Part shown: piece after piece, positions 49,072-57,354 of the stretch | Layout: each line of letters opens with the position of its first letter | How positions within the stretch are numbered: the stretch's first letter is position 1 | NCBI GenBank assembly: GCA_964607485.1 | Contig: CAZSKP010000005.1 | Span: 32,001-96,000 of the forward strand | Direction of reading: 5' to 3' | Source: an uncultured bacterium | Lineage (GTDB): Bacteria > Abyssobacteria > SURF-5 | DNA: 64,000 bases | Position numbers and translations under genes: made by a program | The notes under the pieces: generated by a model | Databases searched by the model: none | The model's input: only the letters and a program-made list of their open reading frames with translations | What the model was told of the DNA's origin: nothing

Positions 49072-49152
49072 CGAGGCCGAAGCGAGCCCCGATGAGTATG
49101 GGTGGAAGCGGCGTGGACGGACTGCCTAGTTTCTGAGAAGAAGGAAATAGGA

Positions 49153-50196
49153 ATGGACGCGTTGGTGAAGCTGAGCAGCGTGGTGGGGCTTTCTCTCACC
49201 TCGGGGATAAATCTCTACGCGACCGTGGCTGTCGTGGGGCTCGTCACGAAGTTCGACATGATAAAGGGACTGCCTCCCGAATTCCAGGCATTCAACAATA
49301 ACTTCATTATTATCCTCGCCATAGTTCTCTACCTTTGCGAATTTGCAGCCGACAAGATTCCCGCCTTCGACACCGTCTGGGACAGCGTGCACACCATAAT
49401 TCGACCGTTCGGAGCGGCATTGGTCTCGCTGGCAGCCGTCGGCGAGGCAGGCCCGTCGGTAGAGGTCGGCGTCGCACTGCTCGGCGCGAGCCTTGCGCTG
49501 GCCACCCACACGGCGAAGGCGGGCACCCGGCTGGTGGTCAATACCAGTCCCGAGCCGTTCTCGAATATCGCCCTCAGCCTCGCGGAGGACGTAGGAGTGG
49601 TGGGGATGTCGCTTCTCGTCATGTCTCACCCAATTATCTCGCTTGTGGTCAGCCTGGTAGTCCTGGTTCTCCTTATAAAGTTCGGACCCGGGCTGTGGAG
49701 AGGAGCCATCCTGATTGTCAGGGCGATTCCGGCAAAACTCTTCTCGGGAGCATCCGGCGGGGGAGAAGCGGGGCTGAAAGAATTTCTGCCTGATAGCATC
49801 GAGGAGGCGATCGACGCTGAGACGTCAAAGAACGAAGAAGTTCAGGCTTCCATGAAATGCTTCGCGCGTAAGGTGAAGGGATGCGGAAGAAATAAGAAGG
49901 GATACCTCGTCCTGACCGATAACCGGCTGCTCTTTGCGTTTCGAAAATTTTTCAGAACGAGAGTGAAGCAGTGGAAGCTCGCGGACGTGGACAAGGTAAG
50001 GCTGAACAGGAGATTCCTGTTGGATGTGCTCGGAGTCAAGAGCGAGGGAAGATTCCTGCAGTTCATCTTCCTGAAGAACAAGTCCGCTTCCGCCGGCCGA
50101 CTGTGCGAAGTGCTGGATGAAAAGCTCGGCCGCCCGGATTCAAGAGAAGTCGCGCCGGGAGAGGCGGCGAGCGGCGCTGATATCGCCGGCGAATAG
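49153..50196 (+). CDS. DUF4126 membrane protein with C-terminal PH-like extension
   Basis: SGINLYAT, EFAADKIP..D..WD..HT.IRP, NTSPEPFSN..SL.ED. Confidence 0.85.
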   Translation: MDALVKLSSVVGLSLTSGINLYATVAVVGLVTKFDMIKGLPPEFQAFNNNFIIILAIVLYLCEFAADKIPAFDTVWDSVHTIIRPFGAALVSLAAVGEAGPSVEVGVALLGASLALATHTAKAGTRLVVNTSPEPFSNIALSLAEDVGVVGMSLLVMSHPIISLVVSLVVLVLLIKFGPGLWRGAILIVRAIPAKLFSGASGGGEAGLKEFLPDSIEEAIDAETSKNEEVQASMKCFARKVKGCGRNKKGYLVLTDNRLLFAFRKFFRTRVKQWKLADVDKVRLNRRFLLDVLGVKSEGRFLQFIFLKNKSASAGRLCEVLDEKLGRPDSREVAPGEAASGADIAGE

Positions 50197-50204
50197 TCCC
50201 CCCA

Positions 50205-50972
50205 TCAGTACAGAAGCCTGCTCCATTGCAGTAGTCCCATGAACACGAGCGCCGCCGACATTGCGACGCCGAAGAGCACGTCAACCCCGCCAATTGAAAA
50301 ATCGTCCATTGCGTAGAACTTTCCCTTGAAACCTCGACATAACATGGCGGCATAGACTGCCTGCGCGCTTTCGTAACTGCTCACCAAAAGCATCCCCACC
50401 ATGTTCGCGTACGACCGATACGTATGCAGGTTGGCGCCGGGCCGGAAGCAGCGCACCTTCATCGAGGCCCTGAGCCGCAGATACTCGCGGTTTATCACGC
50501 CGAGATACCGAAGCATGAAGAGGAGCACGTGGATTATCTTTTCGGGAACGTGCAGCCTGCCGAGGGCGCGGCCGATGTCGGTCAGGTGTGTCGTCGAGAG
50601 AAGAGCGATGCACGTGAGGACGATGGCGTTCGATTTAACGGTGATGAGGAGCGCGTAGGCAGCCCCTTCGCGCGAGAACGCCAGCGGGCCGACGTGGAAC
50701 ACGACCTCGCCGGGATAGGTGAACGGCAGCATGAGCCACAACAGAAGCATGAACCCGTTGACGAGCAGCATTCGATACGCGATCGCCCGGGCGGGCAGCC
50801 TCGCCACCGAGGCGAGCACAACCGCCAGCCCCAGTGCCAGCATCAGCGCGGGAAAGCGGTCTGCCACGGCCGTCAAGATTGAAAAAGCTACGGCGGCGAC
50901 GATTTTCACCCGCGGGTCGAGCCGGTGAACGAAAGAATCACCGTCGGCAAACGTTTCTTCCAGCATGCTCAT
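50205..50972 (-). CDS. cbiQ: ECF transporter T component (CbiQ/NikQ)
   Basis: HRLDPRVK, F..RY, KVRCF, AMLCRGF. Confidence 0.92.
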   Translation of the reverse strand: MSMLEETFADGDSFVHRLDPRVKIVAAVAFSILTAVADRFPALMLALGLAVVLASVARLPARAIAYRMLLVNGFMLLLWLMLPFTYPGEVVFHVGPLAFSREGAAYALLITVKSNAIVLTCIALLSTTHLTDIGRALGRLHVPEKIIHVLLFMLRYLGVINREYLRLRASMKVRCFRPGANLHTYRSYANMVGMLLVSSYESAQAVYAAMLCRGFKGKFYAMDDFSIGGVDVLFGVAMSAALVFMGLLQWSRLLY

Positions 50973-51631
50973 TATTGCCGCCTCTGGAGTCGTCTGCTGC
51001 GAAAATACAGCGCCAATCCCATCAAACCGATAATATAACCGATCCCGCCGACGATGTCGGAAAACCTCTCCCTGTCCTTGGATTCCTCGATGGCTCTGCG
51101 AATGGGCGCCAACTGTCGGGCGAGCGCTTCATCGATGGCCCGTTCAATGTCAGTCATGGCGGGTGTGGGCTCTATCGGTGCATCCTCAGGTTTTGCTGTG
51201 GGCTCTTTCGGAACCCCCGCGGGTGGAGCTTCAGGAGCCGTTCCCGTGGGTATATCCTCAGGCAGGCCGCCGGGAAGTTCGCTCGCCTGAATCGTGTATT
51301 CAGCCCTGTGGCCCATCGACGCAGTGAGGCGTATCAGCAGGTTCGCCCTGACCGGAGGATGGAACGAAAACGTGCCTTCGGCGTCGGTCTTGCCTTCGAG
51401 GAGTTTCTTCCCCTTGTCATCGAACACCTCGATGGTCGAGTCGCGGCATTTGCGCCCGTCGTTGAAGTAGCTTTCGGTAACCACGTTATCACCTTCCACG
51501 TAGGCGAACACGTTTACCTTGTGAGCCCACGCGGTCGATGGCGCGAGAAGCCCGGTGAGTAAACAGATGACCATGAGGGAGAATATTCTCGAACACCGAC
51601 TTCTACGTCTTGCTGAACTGAGAGTGGGCAT
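50972..51631 (-). CDS. Accessory Ni/Co transporter component (NikL/CbiL-like)
   Basis: Signal peptide then AH-KVNVFA, GKTDAEG.F, GH, and a C-terminal TM (DIVGGIGYIIGL). Confidence 0.75.
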   Translation of the reverse strand: MPTLSSARRRSRCSRIFSLMVICLLTGLLAPSTAWAHKVNVFAYVEGDNVVTESYFNDGRKCRDSTIEVFDDKGKKLLEGKTDAEGTFSFHPPVRANLLIRLTASMGHRAEYTIQASELPGGLPEDIPTGTAPEAPPAGVPKEPTAKPEDAPIEPTPAMTDIERAIDEALARQLAPIRRAIEESKDRERFSDIVGGIGYIIGLMGLALYFRSRRLQRRQ

Positions 51632-52235
51632 AGGGCGCCTCCAGGATTTCCGGCTTGACCTTTTTCAGGAAGCCAACAACGAAAGTGGTCACCACTCCCT
51701 CGACAACCATTACGGGCAGGTGTGCGACCAACACGACCTTTGCGACTTCCAGGAACGATTCCTCCGACCAGACGAGTGAAAGTGCGACCATCAGGCCGCT
51801 CAACAGGATGGCGATGGCGCCGCACGCGAACGCTGCCGTCGCCGATACAAAAGCGCGCGAGCTGTGAATGAAGCGTCCGAACAGCAGAAAGCATATCACT
51901 GCGGGTAGGGCCATGTTCAGCGTATTTACGCCGAGCGTCGTCAGGCCGCCGAATTGAAACATGATCCCCTGCAGGAATAGAGCCACCAAAATCGCAGGGA
52001 AAGCCTCCCAGCCGAGCAACACTCCTGCGAGCCCGTTGAGCACCAGATGAACGCTCACAAAGGGGCCGACGGGCAAGTGTATGAGCGACGCCACGAAGAA
52101 CGCGCACGAGACGAGCGCCACCTGAGGAACCCGCTCGTAATCCATTTTCTTCAAGGCGTAGGCGACGCCGGCGGCGGTCAAACCACCGCCGGCAACCAGG
52201 ACTGCGGGCGATAAAACGCCTTCGGAAATGTGCAT
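51603..52235 (-). CDS. cbiM: ECF transporter S component (CbiM/NikM)
   Basis: N-terminal MHISEG, SVH, LQ..F.FGG.T.LG.N, H...EG. Confidence 0.94.
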   Translation of the reverse strand: MHISEGVLSPAVLVAGGGLTAAGVAYALKKMDYERVPQVALVSCAFFVASLIHLPVGPFVSVHLVLNGLAGVLLGWEAFPAILVALFLQGIMFQFGGLTTLGVNTLNMALPAVICFLLFGRFIHSSRAFVSATAAFACGAIAILLSGLMVALSLVWSEESFLEVAKVVLVAHLPVMVVEGVVTTFVVGFLKKVKPEILEAPYAHSQFSKT

Positions 52236-52242
52236 CGCCTTA

Positions 52243-53025
52243 TTACTCCATCTCGCGGGTGTTGACCCATATCAGCGCGCCGATTTCGACGGGCACCTCG
52301 TCGCCGTCGGGATTCTTGAGCTTTTCGTCGGCCTCGCTCAGCGCGGCGAACCCCCACCAGCCCGCCTTCGGCATCGCGTAACTGAACACGCCGTTGGCAT
52401 CGGCCTTGACCACCTGGGTGATGAACGGGTCGGCGGGCGGCTTGACCTTTCCGTCCTCATTGAAGTATTCCACCTCGACCTCGGCGTAGGGAACCGGCTT
52501 GCCGTCCTTCTTCACGATTCCGCGGAACACGTTGCCGGCCCACAGCCCGTACGGGCGCGTGAGCGGCACGATCTCCGTCTTCAGCCCGAGTTCCTCATCC
52601 CAGCCCTGCTCGAGGCCCATCGCGTTCACCACGACCTTCGTGTAATGAACAATCATGAGGCCTTCGGCTGGCTCCCAGTAGGGGGCGGGCTCGACATAGA
52701 ACACGTGGTCGCCCGGCCGCTTGATTTCATACGTTGTCTTGAAGGCGGAGTGGCCCTTGTAGGTCATCGGCTCGAGGGCACCGAGCAGGTCGTGCTTCTT
52801 GCCTCCAATGAACACCCCGAACTCGGTCGGCTTCGCCATATCCATGGAATGGCCTTCCATAGGGTGTATGAACATCAGCCGCAGGGACAGCTCTCTGCTG
52901 TCCCTCGGCGAGACGATGTCCGTTGAGGGCACTATCATCTGGAAGTGTGCAAGGGCCGGCGACGCGGCTGCAAGGGTGAGAATCAAGGCAATGAGTAAAC
53001 GAGACAATGTTCCAGTGGTTTTCAT
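52243..53025 (-). CDS. Periplasmic DUF4198 (NikK-like) protein
   Basis: Signal peptide then [35 protein letters not shown]. Confidence 0.85.
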
Positions 53026-53056
53026 AACGGCATTCTCCTTGTCGTTGTAAATTCTA

Positions 53057-54364
53057 TCAAAAATCAACCTGCGCGCGTGTGCCGAGAACGGTCACGGTGT
53101 CGTTGTCGGCATCGCCCCCCGGATTGTCGATGACCTGAATATCGGGAGAGAGGCGGAACTGGTCGCTGAACATGATGCTGTAGTATGCTTCAAAAAGCGT
53201 CTCGGTGTCATCGGGCTCGACTCTGTCGCTTATGAGCGCCTGCGAGACCGCGAAGCCAAGCACGTCGTTCTCGCGGTTCCACTTCCTCCCGCGTATCTCA
53301 GCGCCCGCGCTCCATGTTCCCTCGACCTCGTACACGTCCTTATCCGCATATCCCGCCCGGAGGAACGCGGTGAGGCAATCGGTGAGCTGCTGGTCAAAGC
53401 TCAGGCCGACACCCCAGCCGTTCTTGTGAGAGTCGCCGTCGCCCAGCTTCTCCTTGTCGGAACCGTTGACCCAGGCGTAGAACCGGTAGTTGCCTTCCCT
53501 TTCGCTCAAATTCGGCTTGAAATCCACCTCCATGATGCCGAAGCCGTCATTCGCAATGTCTTCCCAGTCGGCATCGCTTTCGGCCCAGCCGAGACTGAAC
53601 TGAATCAGGTCGGATGGATAAACGGCAAGCAGTGCGCCTGCCCCGTTTTCCTCGGGAAACTCGACTGCGATAGAGTTGACGAGCCCGGAGTTGAGGAACT
53701 GAAATCTCTCGTCGTTGGCCACTGTGTTCGTGTCGAAATAGTTGGTCATGTCGAGTTTGCCGGCGGCGAGCGCGACGCGGTCATCACAGAAGGAATGCTG
53801 ATACCATGCCTCTGTCACTTCCAGGCCACTCTCGCTGTCGCCGGCGTCGTCGTTCACGTTGTGAAAGAGACCCTCAAGCTCATCGGTCAGTCCGTCGCCC
53901 TGAGCGGCCTCGATGAGCATAAAGGCCAAGCCGCGCTCTCCGACGGGCGACTCGAGCTCAAGGTCCATCGACCACGAGCCATCCGTCCGGTCCCGATTCT
54001 CACCGCTGATGTCCTCGCCGTCGATGCTGCCCTGTACGACGCCGGTGAGGCCGACGGCGATCCGCAGGTTCCCCAATTGCTCGCCCACCCCGCTGCGGTC
54101 GTGCAGGATATGTTTATCAAGGTGCGGCTCAAACATCCGTGCCATTTCTTCGGGCGAGGGAAGCTGCGCCTGCAAATCTCTTATGAGCTGTTCCTGATGC
54201 CTGATTGTTTGACCTTGTTGCTGAACCACCTCCTGAAGTTGGGTGACCATCTGTTTGAGTTCTTCGAGTTGCTGTTCCACCGTGTCCGCATGGCTTCTGG
54301 ATGCCGGAAGCATCGCCGCCATCGCGACGGCAGCCAGCGCGAGCCCGCGCGTGAGTCCTTTCAT
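53057..54364 (-). CDS. Outer-membrane porin (OprB-like) with N-terminal coiled coil
   Basis: Signal peptide, coiled coil, EAWY, GKLD...FD.N..ANDE..QF, EAYY, SPDIQ, terminal Phe. Confidence 0.82.
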
Positions 54365-54490
54365 GTTTGCCGTCCTTTCCCTTTCGGACTCCGGGGGCAA
54401 TCTCCGATATTGCGCCGAGTAACGCCCATAAGAGCGCATCCGGAGACTCATCGCCTCTGCGACAAGGTACAATTCTCCTTCCGTTTCCCC

Positions 54491-54594
54491 AAAAAAAATC
54501 ACGAAGGGGCGGCGTCCGCTTCGTGCCGACGCGCCGACCTTCGTGGTCAGCTTTGGGAAATACTACTGTATTCGGCCGGGCCTTCGTGGCCCGG
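54491..54594 (-). promoter_or_regulatory. Candidate transcription attenuator: three ACGAA-loop hairpins plus a competing U8 terminator
   Basis: CCGGGCC-ACGAA-GGCCCGG; GCUGACC-ACGAA-GGUCGGC; GCGUCgGC-ACGAA-GCgGACGC; then CCUUCGUG-A-U8. Confidence 0.8.
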
Positions 54595-54608
54595 GTTGTC
54601 GAGCGTTC

Positions 54609-54797
54609 TCAGCTCTTCTCGAGGAGTATCTTGTGGTCAATCAGGCGAATCTCTTTTATGCGCGCGCTGACGGTCTTCTGTTCGCCGAAAGCGCTTCGCA
54701 GATACACTCCGTCGCCTTCAGGACGCAAGATATCCACGCTCTCGAGCAGCATCTGCTCCTTGCCGTTTTCCAGGATGTAGGCGTTTGCTTCACACAT
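54609..54797 (-). CDS. cooT: CooT-family nickel-binding protein
   Basis: 62 aa, MCEANAY N-terminus (Cys2), FGE, late His in LIDHKILL. Confidence 0.85.
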   Translation of the reverse strand: MCEANAYILENGKEQMLLESVDILRPEGDGVYLRSAFGEQKTVSARIKEIRLIDHKILLEKS

Positions 54798-55215
54798 TTT
54801 CAGGGTTCCTTGCTATTGCGGCCACTCGCTGGACGAGCTCCTCTATGAGGTGAGGAATCGGCTCGTCCTTCAAGCCGACAACCTCGATGCCGGCCGACTT
54901 GAGCGGCATCACAATCTTATGGGCCCGGCTCTGAACGATTGCTTCAACCATGCCGGGGGTTATCTCGCCGAGCATCGAATGCGGCTGAAGAATCGCAAGC
55001 CCGCCCGTGATGATGTCCAGCCGGGGCGATGTTTGGCTGATGGCGTTCTCGCCCGAGGCGCCCTTGTTCGCGCCCGCCTTCATCATGTTGGCCGTGGCGA
55101 TGGCGTTCGTCCCGAGCGCCACTATCTCCGTCTCCTCGGGCAGGGCCTTGCGCAGCCGCTCGACCACATGCGCTCCGATTCCGCCGCCCTGTCCGTCCAC
55201 CACGCCAACTATCAC
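54790..55215 (-). CDS. DUF3842 family protein
   Basis: VVDGQGGGIG, ALGTNAIAT..M.KAGA..GASGENA, SMLGEITP. Overlaps cooT by 8 nt. Confidence 0.85.
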   Translation of the reverse strand: MIVGVVDGQGGGIGAHVVERLRKALPEETEIVALGTNAIATANMMKAGANKGASGENAISQTSPRLDIITGGLAILQPHSMLGEITPGMVEAIVQSRAHKIVMPLKSAGIEVVGLKDEPIPHLIEELVQRVAAIARNPENV

Positions 55216-55248
55216 GGTCGCACCCGATTCGAATTGTCTTACGGAACA

Positions 55249-55277
55249 AGGATAACAGAATGGCGCGTGTTAGTCAA
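55249..55277 (-). promoter_or_regulatory. sigma70-type promoter of the DUF3842-cooT-transporter operon
   Basis: Minus strand TTGACT-17-TATCCT with TG extended -10. Confidence 0.6.
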
Positions 55278-55554
55278 GAAGGCGATCGGGAGAATGAAAG
55301 TCGCGGGAATCGTGATAAGTTATGCTCGACCATATGGCCGTGCCGAGTCGTTCCAATCTGAACGTGAAACCGTTCTGGAGATTTCGGCGGGGCGCATCAA
55401 GACCTCGGAGGATGGCACCCATGCTATAATGAAGTCAGGCCTGCTCAGGGGGGAAGTATGCTCCGGGTTGAAATGGACAGGCCATACCAACGAAACGGGG
55501 CGATACTCGGATTTCTTCCAGTCCGCCGCAATACAGTTTTCTGGAAGCCGTCAC

Positions 55555-57354
55555 ATGAGGAAGCGATTTTTCAAAGCGAACTCGCTGATTGCAGTTTGTT
55601 GGGTACTCTTTGCAATCAGCAGTTTCTATCTTGCCTGGTCACTATGCAACCTTCAGGTAGATTGGGACAGGGGGCCCGACTCACTTCCGGCTTTCTATCG
55701 GCTGCAGTATAGCTTGATTGGAGTGTTGGCCTTTTTCTTCCTCTGGCATCTGATTGCTCTGATTTCGGCCATCCTTACGGGTCAAGAATTGAGAACTATT
55801 CTGACGAAATACTCTTTGTCGTGTGTGTCCTTTCTGGCCGTGGTTATCACAAACAATCAGGCACAGGGATATTTGGAGGGAGAATTCGCCCGGCTTTCGA
55901 CGACCGATTTCCTCTTGCCAGGAACGATTCCGGAAGCAGCGCGCACAGATATGCTGTTTCTTGGGATGGTCGTCGTCCCATCGCTCTTATTGTTTCTGGC
56001 AATTCTCCTGGGGGTTCTGAGGAAGTCGAAGTTGAGGGCCGTTCACGGACTGTTTCGACTCAAGCCGATGTTGAATCTCATGCTGCTCATTCTCACGGCG
56101 GTCGGATGGAATCATTGGCGGTATGCGGTATTTGAGCGAGGCGAGGGGGAGCCGAATATCTTGTTTATCGTTTGTGATGCGATGCGCGCAGACCATCTGG
56201 GCTGCTATGGATATTCGAGAAACACGACCCCCTGCCTGGACCAATTAGCCAGAGAGGGAGTTGTATTCTCAAACTTCACTGCTGCTTCCAGCTGGAGCCT
56301 GCCGTCCTATACGGCGATGTATACATCACGATATTTTTCATACTACGACGATTCCATTGCGAGACCTCGGTGCGCGGGAAGGGCGTTGACCATGACTCAG
56401 ATTCTGACCAATCAGCACTACTACACGAAGGCCCTCCTTTCAAATGTCTTTGCTGCAAAATCTTATGGTAGCCCGAAGGTGGACCTGGATATTCATATGA
56501 GCATCGATTCTTCCGGAACATTCAGCCGGACTTTCACCGACCGCGCGCTGGAGCTAATCGAGACAATCAAGGACAAAAGGTTCTTTATTTACTTGCAATA
56601 TATGGACCCGCACGAGCCGTACACGCCGCCAGCACCTTTTGATCAGCTCTTCGTGGACCCGGCAAATAGACTGCTGACCGAGGAAGACAGGAGAAGGAGA
56701 AGCTTCGCCTTATATGACGAAGAAATCGCCTATGTCGATTCTCAAATATCGCGACTCCTTCAACAACTCAAGACTCTAGGCATCTACAATGACACGTTCG
56801 TAGTCGTGACTGCCGACCACGGGCAAGGGTATAGGTTTCACGGATATTCTCTCGATGAGGAACTGCTAAGGGTTCCCTTGATCATTCGCGGACCAGGAAT
56901 CCCCGAGAACAAGAGGGTTGATTCCGTGGCGAGCCATGTTGATCTGTTACCCACATTCATGGAATGGACGATGGGCGAACCGGATGCTCGTTGTCAGGGC
57001 AAGAGTTTAGTACCAATCATACACGGGACAGATGCTGAAGATCACATTGTCTTCGCCGAACTGGATCTTCCTTTCCTTCCTCTACAACCCGGGTTACCAC
57101 CTGAGCATCATCTCGTCAGCGTAAGGAAGGGGTGTTGGAAACTTGTCACCGGAGACCCGAGAGGAGAGCTGCTGTTCGACCTGGAAAAGGACCCGGCGGA
57201 AAAAACCAATCTTGCGGAAGCGAAACGGCAAATTGTGGCCGACTTGAGCGCCAAAATCGATGAGTTCGAGAATGGCATGCCAGAGAAGCAGGCCCTGTTC
57301 TCATACTCTCAGAAGGAATTGGAGGCTTTGAAGGACCTGGGATATATTCAATGA
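55555..57354 (+). CDS. Membrane-anchored sulfatase-like (alkaline phosphatase superfamily) protein
   Basis: About 5 N-terminal TM segments, PNILFIVCDAMRADHLGCYG, WSLPSY, MDPHEPY, ADHG, LFDLEKDP.E. Confidence 0.85.
   Translation: MRKRFFKANSLIAVCWVLFAISSFYLAWSLCNLQVDWDRGPDSLPAFYRLQYSLIGVLAFFFLWHLIALISAILTGQELRTILTKYSLSCVSFLAVVITNNQAQGYLEGEFARLSTTDFLLPGTIPEAARTDMLFLGMVVVPSLLLFLAILLGVLRKSKLRAVHGLFRLKPMLNLMLLILTAVGWNHWRYAVFERGEGEPNILFIVCDAMRADHLGCYGYSRNTTPCLDQLAREGVVFSNFTAASSWSLPSYTAMYTSRYFSYYDDSIARPRCAGRALTMTQILTNQHYYTKALLSNVFAAKSYGSPKVDLDIHMSIDSSGTFSRTFTDRALELIETIKDKRFFIYLQYMDPHEPYTPPAPFDQLFVDPANRLLTEEDRRRRSFALYDEEIAYVDSQISRLLQQLKTLGIYNDTFVVVTADHGQGYRFHGYSLDEELLRVPLIIRGPGIPENKRVDSVASHVDLLPTFMEWTMGEPDARCQGKSLVPIIHGTDAEDHIVFAELDLPFLPLQPGLPPEHHLVSVRKGCWKLVTGDPRGELLFDLEKDPAEKTNLAEAKRQIVADLSAKIDEFENGMPEKQALFSYSQKELEALKDLGYIQ

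Follow-up and report, generated by a model that had tools for sequence, protein, structure and literature searches.

A putative default-off attenuator with ACGAA-loop hairpins precedes a nickel/cobalt-type uptake operon in an uncultured Abyssobacteria genome

Hydrogenases, CO dehydrogenase/acetyl-CoA synthase and related enzymes make anaerobes dependent on nickel import, for which the textbook control is the DNA-binding repressor NikR. At the RNA level, cobalamin riboswitches commonly precede cbiM, TonB-receptor and ATP-binding cassette (ABC) importer genes, and guanidine-II (mini-ykkC) RNAs consist of separate small hairpins, joined by a variable linker, in which the ACGR loops and the closing pairs are conserved. 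In delta-proteobacteria, NikR represses nikKMLQO and nikMNQO operons through the DNA site GTGTTAC-N13/14-GTAACAC (PMC545781). In the leaders recognized by ANTAR-domain proteins (targets of EutV, NasR and AmiR), a dimeric protein seated on two similar hexanucleotide loops, with A at position 1 and G at position 4, holds an antiterminator (PMC3369931). Here we describe a leader of three hairpins, all with ACGAA loops, on the minus strand of a 64,000-nucleotide (nt) stretch (‘the window’) of contig CAZSKP010000005.1, from an uncultured bacterium of the candidate class SURF-5 (Abyssobacteria). It lies between cooT and a porin gene that heads a nickel/cobalt-type uptake cluster.

An initial annotation, made from the DNA letters, had placed three ACGAA-loop hairpins, then CCUUCGUG and a run of eight U residues (U8), between cooT and the porin gene, and direct reading confirmed this arrangement (Table 1). 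The loop and 3′ half of the second hairpin (P2) double as the 5′ arm of a long intrinsic terminator, and P2 and this terminator are mutually exclusive; the alternative pairing that had been proposed is real, and both folds are backed by covariation, as described below. The minimum-energy fold of positions 54480-54612 consists of the first hairpin (P1) and one long terminator (−60.1 kcal/mol, z −4.4), none of 200 shuffled sequences folded as well, and in this fold a CCCAAAG stretch of the P1–P2 linker is able to pair with the U tract and GGGG. For the segment holding hairpins 2 and 3, the terminator reaches −30.4 kcal/mol against −24.1 kcal/mol for the two hairpins folded separately; because the terminator is more stable than P2 plus P3 by about 6 kcal/mol, termination would be the default. 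The G+C-rich hairpin of 46 nt, followed by A and U8, has the make-up of an intrinsic terminator, and a simple terminator scan overlooked it because its stem is bulged.

The window contains 21 copies of the heptamer CACGAAG where 11.4 would be expected; four of them fall within 89 bases at the leader, three reading on the minus strand and the fourth in reverse complement. The whole genome (4.70 Mb) has 1041 copies, among which the leader is the only cluster of four; a Poisson estimate from those counts puts the expected number of such clusters at about 0.001. Neither of the two covariance models described below (R1 and R2) found a further leader copy in the source genome.

We think it probable that this leader is a conditional intrinsic terminator, the class-local form of a widespread, apparently undescribed leader of nickel/cobalt uptake genes, and that it is held open at P2 by a trans-acting factor. 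P1, P2 and the third hairpin (P3) would fold one after another during transcription, until the emerging CCUUCGUG displaces the own stem of P2 and pairs with CACGAAGG, giving the terminator of about 46 nt followed by U8; with its advantage of about 6 kcal/mol, this would be the default outcome. A factor gripping the loop and closing pairs of P2 together with the GAA-type loop of P1 (and here perhaps that of P3) would hold P2, and RNA polymerase would then read into the uptake genes, presumably at nickel scarcity. Two facts lead us to infer that a factor binds: the conserved loops form in the non-terminating fold alone, and of the two folds the terminator has the higher stability. A protein is the simplest candidate reader and more likely than a small ligand, and it may reasonably be supposed to be multimeric and to hold hairpin 2, as the initial annotation had suggested. 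As a reading of sequence, attenuation is well supported by the comparisons that follow.

Within the candidate class, a DNA search of 41 genomes found the region in 8 of the 9 other genomes of the same family; one of the eight, G001, matches at cooT alone. Trained on eight sequences, a covariance model (R1) detected the leader exactly once in 8 of the 11 class genomes, the source included, and not at all in G001, G002 (77% complete) or G010. All six relatives with downstream DNA keep the order DUF3842, cooT, leader, (porin), DUF4198, CbiM, with the porin missing from G009, and the genes upstream of the DUF3842–cooT module vary. In G001 (locus L009, G001:C604) cooT is followed directly by CbiM, a P2-like hairpin carries the loop GUGCG and the U run is gone, and the locus reads as a natural loss of the terminator.

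The eight-genome alignment has 72% identity per column across seven genera. The initial annotation had called the loop invariant: all three loops are indeed ACGAA in the source genome, but across the eight genomes only that of P2 is near-invariant (ACGAA in seven, ACGGA in one). Loops of hairpin 1 are ACGAA in four genomes and otherwise AUGAC, AUGAA, GCGAA and GUGAA (RYGAM), and those of hairpin 3 are ACGAA in five and otherwise AGAA, ACAAA and AUGAA. Two of the seven P1 pairs covary (one as G-C in five and A-U in three, the other as C-G, G-C and U-A), with 94.6% of cells paired; P2 has one compensatory pair (G-C in seven, U-A in one); and three of the eight P3 pairs are changed on both sides, the internal mismatch being retained in six of the eight genomes.

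Covariation in homologous leaders is present for both folds and supports both. The three-hairpin fold has 90.3% of cells paired, against 12–43% when the 3′ partners are slid, and the fold of hairpin 1 plus terminator has 94.9% against 29–47%; each has six pairs changed on both sides. In G008 the P2 loop ACGGA occurs together with the arm CCUCCGU (pair 72-110, A-U to G-C), a joint change of loop and arm that supports the terminator pairing. In G004 the P2 stem is CUUACC/GGUAAU, altered where the terminator has bulges, which supports P2, and P3 is rebuilt as GCGCUGGC/GCCAGUGC. The U run is retained in all eight leader-bearing genomes, in G007 in the version UUUUUGUUU.

The core of the leader, taken as xxCC-ACGAA-GGxx overlapping a terminator and usually with a C-NGAA-G hairpin upstream, also occurs in other taxa. 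A terminator-stem pattern matched at least 122 stretches on metagenome contigs and at least 121 in a set of one genome per species, most of them unrelated terminators or repeat arrays; among the matches listed, one of 80 metagenome loci (L076) is closely related to the window leader. P2 stem lengths in the 83 listed metagenome matches are two-peaked (one pair, 39; two, 17; three, 2; four, 13; five, 9; six, 1; seven, 2).

Where the P2 stem has at least four pairs, the downstream genes include CbiM plus PDGLE in Desulforudis and BMS3Bbin09, a NikB-like permease in Sporomusa aerivorans, a NikD/E-like ATPase in a Bacillota metagenome-assembled genome (MAG), SBP_bac_5 and a TonB receptor in Desulfobacterales MAGs, and Peripla_BP_2, a periplasmic binding protein, in a Syntrophomonadaceae MAG. 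In Desulfocicer vacuolatum the gene behind such a stem is DUF4198, which also lies downstream of the core at locus L167. Metagenome contigs with the core carry DUF4198 (two cases), TonB receptors (four), TonB, a NikB-like permease and an outer-membrane channel downstream. Among the genome-contig matches listed, an uptake gene is downstream at 9 of 16 loci with a P2 stem of at least four pairs (two repeat arrays having been dropped from this set) and at 1 of 46 with three pairs or fewer. That control comprises 44 loci whose first downstream open reading frame (ORF) was annotated, with no transporters, and two annotated earlier; the single case is the DUF4198 gene of L167. It is P2, rather than the terminator stem, that marks uptake genes. 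Relatives of the leader before nickel/cobalt uptake genes, which the initial annotation had looked to, do exist, since the core precedes such genes in other phyla.

A second covariance model (R2), built from 35 cores with P2 as its sole structure, scores the window leader at 54.8 bits (E 7e-9) and has matches in 59 of 151 Desulfobacteria genomes. In five carrier genomes it found extra copies, located before a TonB receptor (twice), SBP_bac_5, FecCD and an MvhD-type gene. We took the 20 best Desulfobacteria matches with 160 nt of upstream sequence, and a C-[A/U/C]GAA-G hairpin stands 34–93 nt before P2 in at least 14 of these 20; P1 was absent from every search pattern and model. This P1 commonly follows directly on a TTGACA-N17-TAxxxT promoter. 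Among the 27 elements found with R2, CCACGAAGG is exact in all 27 and its complement CCTTCGTG in 12, although neither varied in the training set. P2 is therefore under constraint over and above terminator pairing, and this constraint is the main argument that something may read P2.

The window leader shares with the wider family a CC-ACGAA-GG P2, a complementary 3′ arm with a U run, an upstream P1 and an uptake gene downstream. Its P1 is a pentaloop variant (GGCC-ACGAA-GGCC, 24 nt upstream) against the NGAA tetraloops of Desulfobacteria, and the P1–P2 linker ranges from 24 to 93 nt across the family. In other taxa TTGACA-N17-TATxxT stands just before P1; in the window P1 begins 14 nt past the cooT stop codon, with no promoter of its own right before it.

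These observations bear on a simpler account, in which the leader is a constitutive terminator or insulator that ends the DUF3842–cooT unit, the uptake genes have their own promoter and the motif is a by-product of CACGAAG repeats. Such an account would suit the minimum-energy fold, with its strong terminator beside hairpin 1, the position directly after a stop codon, the CACGAAG arrays at about 12 other loci of the source genome and the palindromic terminator-like arrays of many metagenomes. The identity across seven genera would, however, be unusual for a plain terminator, and the 5′ arm of P2 is dispensable for termination yet conserved and covarying. Moreover, in other phyla the core sits behind a promoter and before an uptake gene, and between U8 and the porin start neither inspection by eye nor a consensus scan found a promoter of sigma-54 or sigma-70 type. 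The repeat arrays, for their part, lack the P2 stem and the gene association. We judge a plain terminator improbable because of the P2-linked gene association, the upstream P1 and the constraint on CCACGAAGG. Stem-loops and a long-U-tail terminator right after a stop codon are also typical of a small RNA derived from the cooT 3′ untranslated region, with the ACGAAGG loops as seeds; since other phyla have the core as a 5′ leader with a promoter of its own, we regard this as very improbable.

The repeats that share the heptamer or the terminator stem are of several kinds. The dispersed repeat of the source genome consists of tandem 9-10-mers, ATC-CACGAAG-RR-CACGAAG-GAW-(CACGAAG), flanked by CGGATT-type and GCGAAGG-type simple repeats. 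It occurs at C18:128-147, C35:44520-44539, C26:50137-50156, C2:209130-209149 and C37:44039-44058, and further at C4:186750, C7:112601, C39:26314 and C51:7523 and 7692, with several copies at contig ends; it has the heptamer of the leader, but outside hairpin loops. Palindromic arrays are made of CACGAAGG / CACAAAGG / CACCAAGG units, mirrored as CCTTCGTG units, and end in GTTTTT. Their loci, which include L027, L031, L034, L035, L037, L039, L041, L051, L056, L098, L154, L163, L174, L175 and L225, lie in contigs titled Acidobacteria, Chloroflexi/Chloroflexota, Desulfotignum, Methylobacter and others, and have neither a P2 stem nor an association with uptake genes. A soil-metagenome family of the form ...GGCT-CACGAAGG-CCGCGGAxCC...GGATCCGCGG-CCTTCGTG-TTTTTT (L032, L048, L053, L065, L072, L074, L088 and L103) appears to be one conserved RNA ending in the terminator stem of the leader.

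Around the leader, the genes named in the initial annotation are recovered by Pfam, with CooT upstream and the OprB porin, DUF4198, CbiM and CbiQ downstream, and the gene order bears out a position suited to gating a nickel/cobalt-type uptake operon. The cluster order K-M-L-Q agrees with the nikKMLQO order known from delta-proteobacteria (PMC545781). No nikO/cbiO ATPase gene is present in the cluster 3′ of CbiQ, a search for the O subunit elsewhere in the genome not having been made; the next sizeable gene past CbiQ, on the opposite strand, encodes DUF4126 plus bPH_3 (49102-50196). In a consensus scan, the promoter-like site before DUF3842 was the sole one found upstream of the leader, and in the source genome the leader is probably internal to a transcript that begins there. 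The transcription unit would then comprise this site, DUF3842, cooT, the leader, the porin gene and nikK-M-L-Q. The adjoining cooT, and the absence of a cobalamin riboswitch, suggest nickel over cobalt or another metal.

Table 1. Features of the leader and its surroundings, in minus-strand order (window coordinates).
Feature	Position	Strand	Remarks
Promoter-like site	55249..55277	minus	TTGACT-N17-TATCCT (with TG), before DUF3842; consensus match only, 9/12
DUF3842 gene	54790..55215	minus	Pfam 1.7e-50; two-gene module with cooT
cooT (62 aa)	54609..54797	minus	Pfam PF10133 1.1e-25; PDB 6FAN CooT E 1e-14; directly upstream of leader
P1 (hairpin 1)	54594-54576	minus	CCGGGCC-ACGAA-GGCCCGG, read directly
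P1–P2 linker	54552..54575	minus	weakly conserved, 3′ end A-rich (eight-genome alignment)
P2 (hairpin 2)	54551-54533	minus	GCUGACC-ACGAA-GGUCGGC, one G-U pair; putative antiterminator
Full intrinsic-terminator hairpin	54500..54545	minus	CACGAAGG ... CCUUCGUG, with P3 inside; computed folds
P3 (hairpin 3)	54532-54512	minus	GCGUCGGC-ACGAA-GCGGACGC, one G.G mismatch; tip of terminator
Terminator 3′ arm	54507-54500	minus	CCUUCGUG; CGCC stands between P3 and this arm, and A follows it
U8 tract	54498-54491	minus	read directly
5′ untranslated region	54365..54490	minus	U tract to porin start; second conserved branched structure
OprB-family porin gene	53057..54364	minus	Pfam 5.1e-34; first gene 3′ of leader
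nikK (DUF4198)	52243-53067	minus	Pfam
nikM (CbiM)	51603-52235	minus	Pfam
nikL-position gene (219 aa)	50972-51631	minus	weak bMG3 match alone
nikQ (CbiQ)	50205-50972	minus	Pfam

Two further features concern the start of the porin gene and the region before it. A mechanical ORF list starts the porin frame at GTG 54502, inside the 3′ arm of the terminator; ATG 54364, which is preceded by AAAGGA and leads into a signal-peptide-like N-terminus, is the likelier start. The 5′ untranslated region also holds a branched structure at 54365-54470 on the minus strand, CUCCGG ... GCGCUC/GGGCGU hairpin ... GGCGCAAU-AUCGGAG-AUUGCC hairpin ... CCGGAG, which is common to three genera, shows changes to both partners in 9 of its 28 pairs (RNAalifold) and has no Rfam match. 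It may or may not be part of the switch.

The logic proposed here closely resembles that of ANTAR leaders, in which the loops and closing pairs of small hairpins are likewise conserved, one hairpin shares sequence with the terminator and unbound RNA terminates (PMC3369931). The initial annotation had accordingly invoked ANTAR-type antitermination, and this survives as an analogy only. Loop length differs, at five bases (ACGAA) or, in the P1 hairpins of other taxa, four (NGAA) rather than six; A at position 1 is present, but G is at position 3 rather than 4. The linker of 24–93 nt compares with 5–12 nt in the Enterococcus faecalis eut leaders (PMC3369931), and the regulon here is one of metal import. 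The ANTAR domain (PF03861) had no matches in the source genome (G000, 97.5% complete) or in carrier G044, and is present in carriers G041, G042 and G043. That the leader is the target of an ANTAR-domain antiterminator is thus barely conceivable, and for the source genome this reading is close to refuted.

Compared with the NikR system, the genes under control are alike, with nikK, M, L and Q together with outer-membrane uptake genes, and the purpose of limiting nickel import is presumably shared; the difference is that control here would act at the RNA level. No NikR-type site within three mismatches occurs in 50000-56000, and NikR_C was not found in four of five carriers, the source genome included, with a borderline match in the fifth.

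Direct sensing by the RNA, with hairpins that bind a metal ion, a metal complex or a nickel-need metabolite and no protein involved, is an alternative that we consider unlikely. It would account for the occurrence of the leader in at least three phylum-level groups with no single candidate protein in all carriers, and for the conservation of the loops and closing pairs alone across a linker of such variable length. The CG within ACGAA is self-complementary, which makes a loop–loop contact conceivable, and tandem modules with two ACGAA hairpins exist. The architecture is as minimal as that of guanidine-II, and the ACGA(A) loop is similar. Here, however, the closing pair is C-G, the NGAA P1 loops of most relatives (UGAA, AGAA and CGAA) are not complementary to ACGAA, with AGAA lacking the CG altogether, and the context is metal uptake with a terminator read-out, in place of guanidine efflux or degradation. 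No conserved junction or pocket is visible, and a ligand bound to the conserved fold would turn the switch on, which for an importer suits a signal of scarcity over the metal itself.

NiCo (czcD) and cobalamin riboswitches likewise control nickel- and cobalt-related transport at the RNA level, but the leader has no multi-helix junction of their kind. Rfam 15 (4227 families), run on the window at the gathering score, gave no guanidine-II, NiCo, cobalamin or other match; at E up to 10, positions 54200-54900 gave four chance-level matches to unrelated families (E 0.55–9.9), with mini-ykkC not among them. A further 34 related loci (20 at the gathering score, 14 at E up to 1) gave no match either. 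The initial annotation had seen no likeness to a cobalamin or NiCo riboswitch, and this holds, as does the lack of any Rfam family, at the window, the locus and the 34 related loci. Full-text literature yielded no published description of the leader, subscription journals and supplements such as the motif lists of RNA-discovery papers lying outside that search. It is apparently an undescribed family with a known kind of mechanism.

A different protein could be the reader. CooT, alone or with DUF3842, might act as an RNA-binding factor whose apo dimer grips two GAA loops and whose nickel-loaded form lets go. The cooT stop codon lies just before P1 in the window, CooT is a homodimer with one Ni per dimer and a Kd of 9 nM (PMC6006190), and the JGI name ‘predicted RNA-binding protein’ is attached to at least 20 of 101 listed homologues, which is a lead only. 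DUF3842–CooT genes are usually adjacent and on the same strand, in Desulfobacteria and at G043:C50, G044:C1, and G045:C1 and C3, and such pairs adjoin leaders in G045 (two loci), G053, G075 and G114. In G045, G053 and G075 the leader is directly upstream of the pair, which makes the pair at least a member of the regulon. R2 matches occur in 58 of 137 CooT-positive Desulfobacteria against 1 of 14 CooT-negative ones, although relatedness among these genomes keeps the comparison from being statistically clean.

The CooT model matches CooT structures with Z 12.5 (6FAN) and 9.2, but other PDB chains match at noise level (ATP synthase epsilon, Z about 5; RimM/PRC barrel, 3.3–3.9; Hfq, 3.0). The DUF3842 model (predicted local distance difference test score, pLDDT, 93.5) gives generic Rossmann-like matches with a best Foldseek E of 1.2e-3, and sequence comparison found no solved relative. 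A nickel chaperone would be expected to cluster with nickel import anyway. CooT is present in four of the five carriers searched and DUF3842 in all five of them, but G176, the one CooT-negative genome with an R2 match, carries a genuine leader (promoter, P1, P2 and terminator) while lacking both CooT and DUF3842; the two proteins are therefore not obligatory. Together with the leader-bearing but PF10133-less S. aerivorans, this makes CooT as the reader quite improbable. The phyletic profile of the two proteins was tried as a discriminator and rejected, both being too common (DUF3842 in 136 and CooT in 137 of 151 Desulfobacteria, with 14 shared absences); DUF3842 had no match in 14 well-known control genomes.

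Several points weigh against attenuation by a trans-acting factor as proposed above. In this class the leader follows a gene, not a promoter, and may act mainly as the cooT terminator. The covariation comes from eight related genomes, the one compensatory pair of P2 is a single event, and the cross-phylum loci were found by a fixed P2/arm sequence and selected for a P2 stem, so that their P2 pairing is by construction. No candidate protein accompanies every leader: ANTAR is missing from two of the five carriers searched, CooT (PF10133) from the complete S. aerivorans genome and from G176, and DUF3842 from G176. The metal is assigned from gene families, and the sole DUF4198 protein characterized to date binds zinc (PMC12663993).

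Other features recur next to leaders elsewhere. SAM-dependent methyltransferases (Methyltransf_11/25/31, UbiE-like) are repeatedly the first gene downstream (L057, L028, L059, L081, L087 and L180), and at L197 a methyltransferase is upstream; one adjoins a deoxyhypusine-synthase-like gene and another follows a NikE-like ATPase. These enzymes could belong to a metallophore pathway. At L030, L057, L081, L086, L197, L290, L302 and L308 one gene is preceded by two complete modules in tandem, both made up of ACGAA hairpin, inner hairpin, 3′ arm and U run. In two unrelated carriers (L187 and L287) the C-terminal part of a P-type ATPase (E1-E2_ATPase plus Hydrolase) lies just upstream of the leader. 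Small ORFs adjoining metagenomic leaders are not CooT.

A conserved RNA element before uptake genes, in genomes where NikR is mostly not found, suggests a second route of nickel homeostasis, acting on RNA and spanning Bacillota, Desulfobacterota and a candidate class represented only by metagenomes. In its boldest form, which we hold to be decidedly unlikely, a metal-responsive RNA would take over the part of NikR in anaerobes that lack it, across at least three phylum-level groups, with the RNA itself, two or three GAA-loop hairpins at most, as the sensor or, in a variant, CooT as a loop-binding antiterminator. Were the RNA the sensor, this would be the first riboswitch class for nickel uptake and one of the smallest aptamers. 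With its small size, sharp definition and ease of mutation, and its presence in the culturable Desulfocicer vacuolatum DSM 3385 and Sporomusa aerivorans DSM 13326, the leader makes the question of metal sensing directly testable. The leader also serves as a marker that would place uncharacterized transporters, DUF4198 proteins, TonB receptors and several methyltransferases in one metal regulon.

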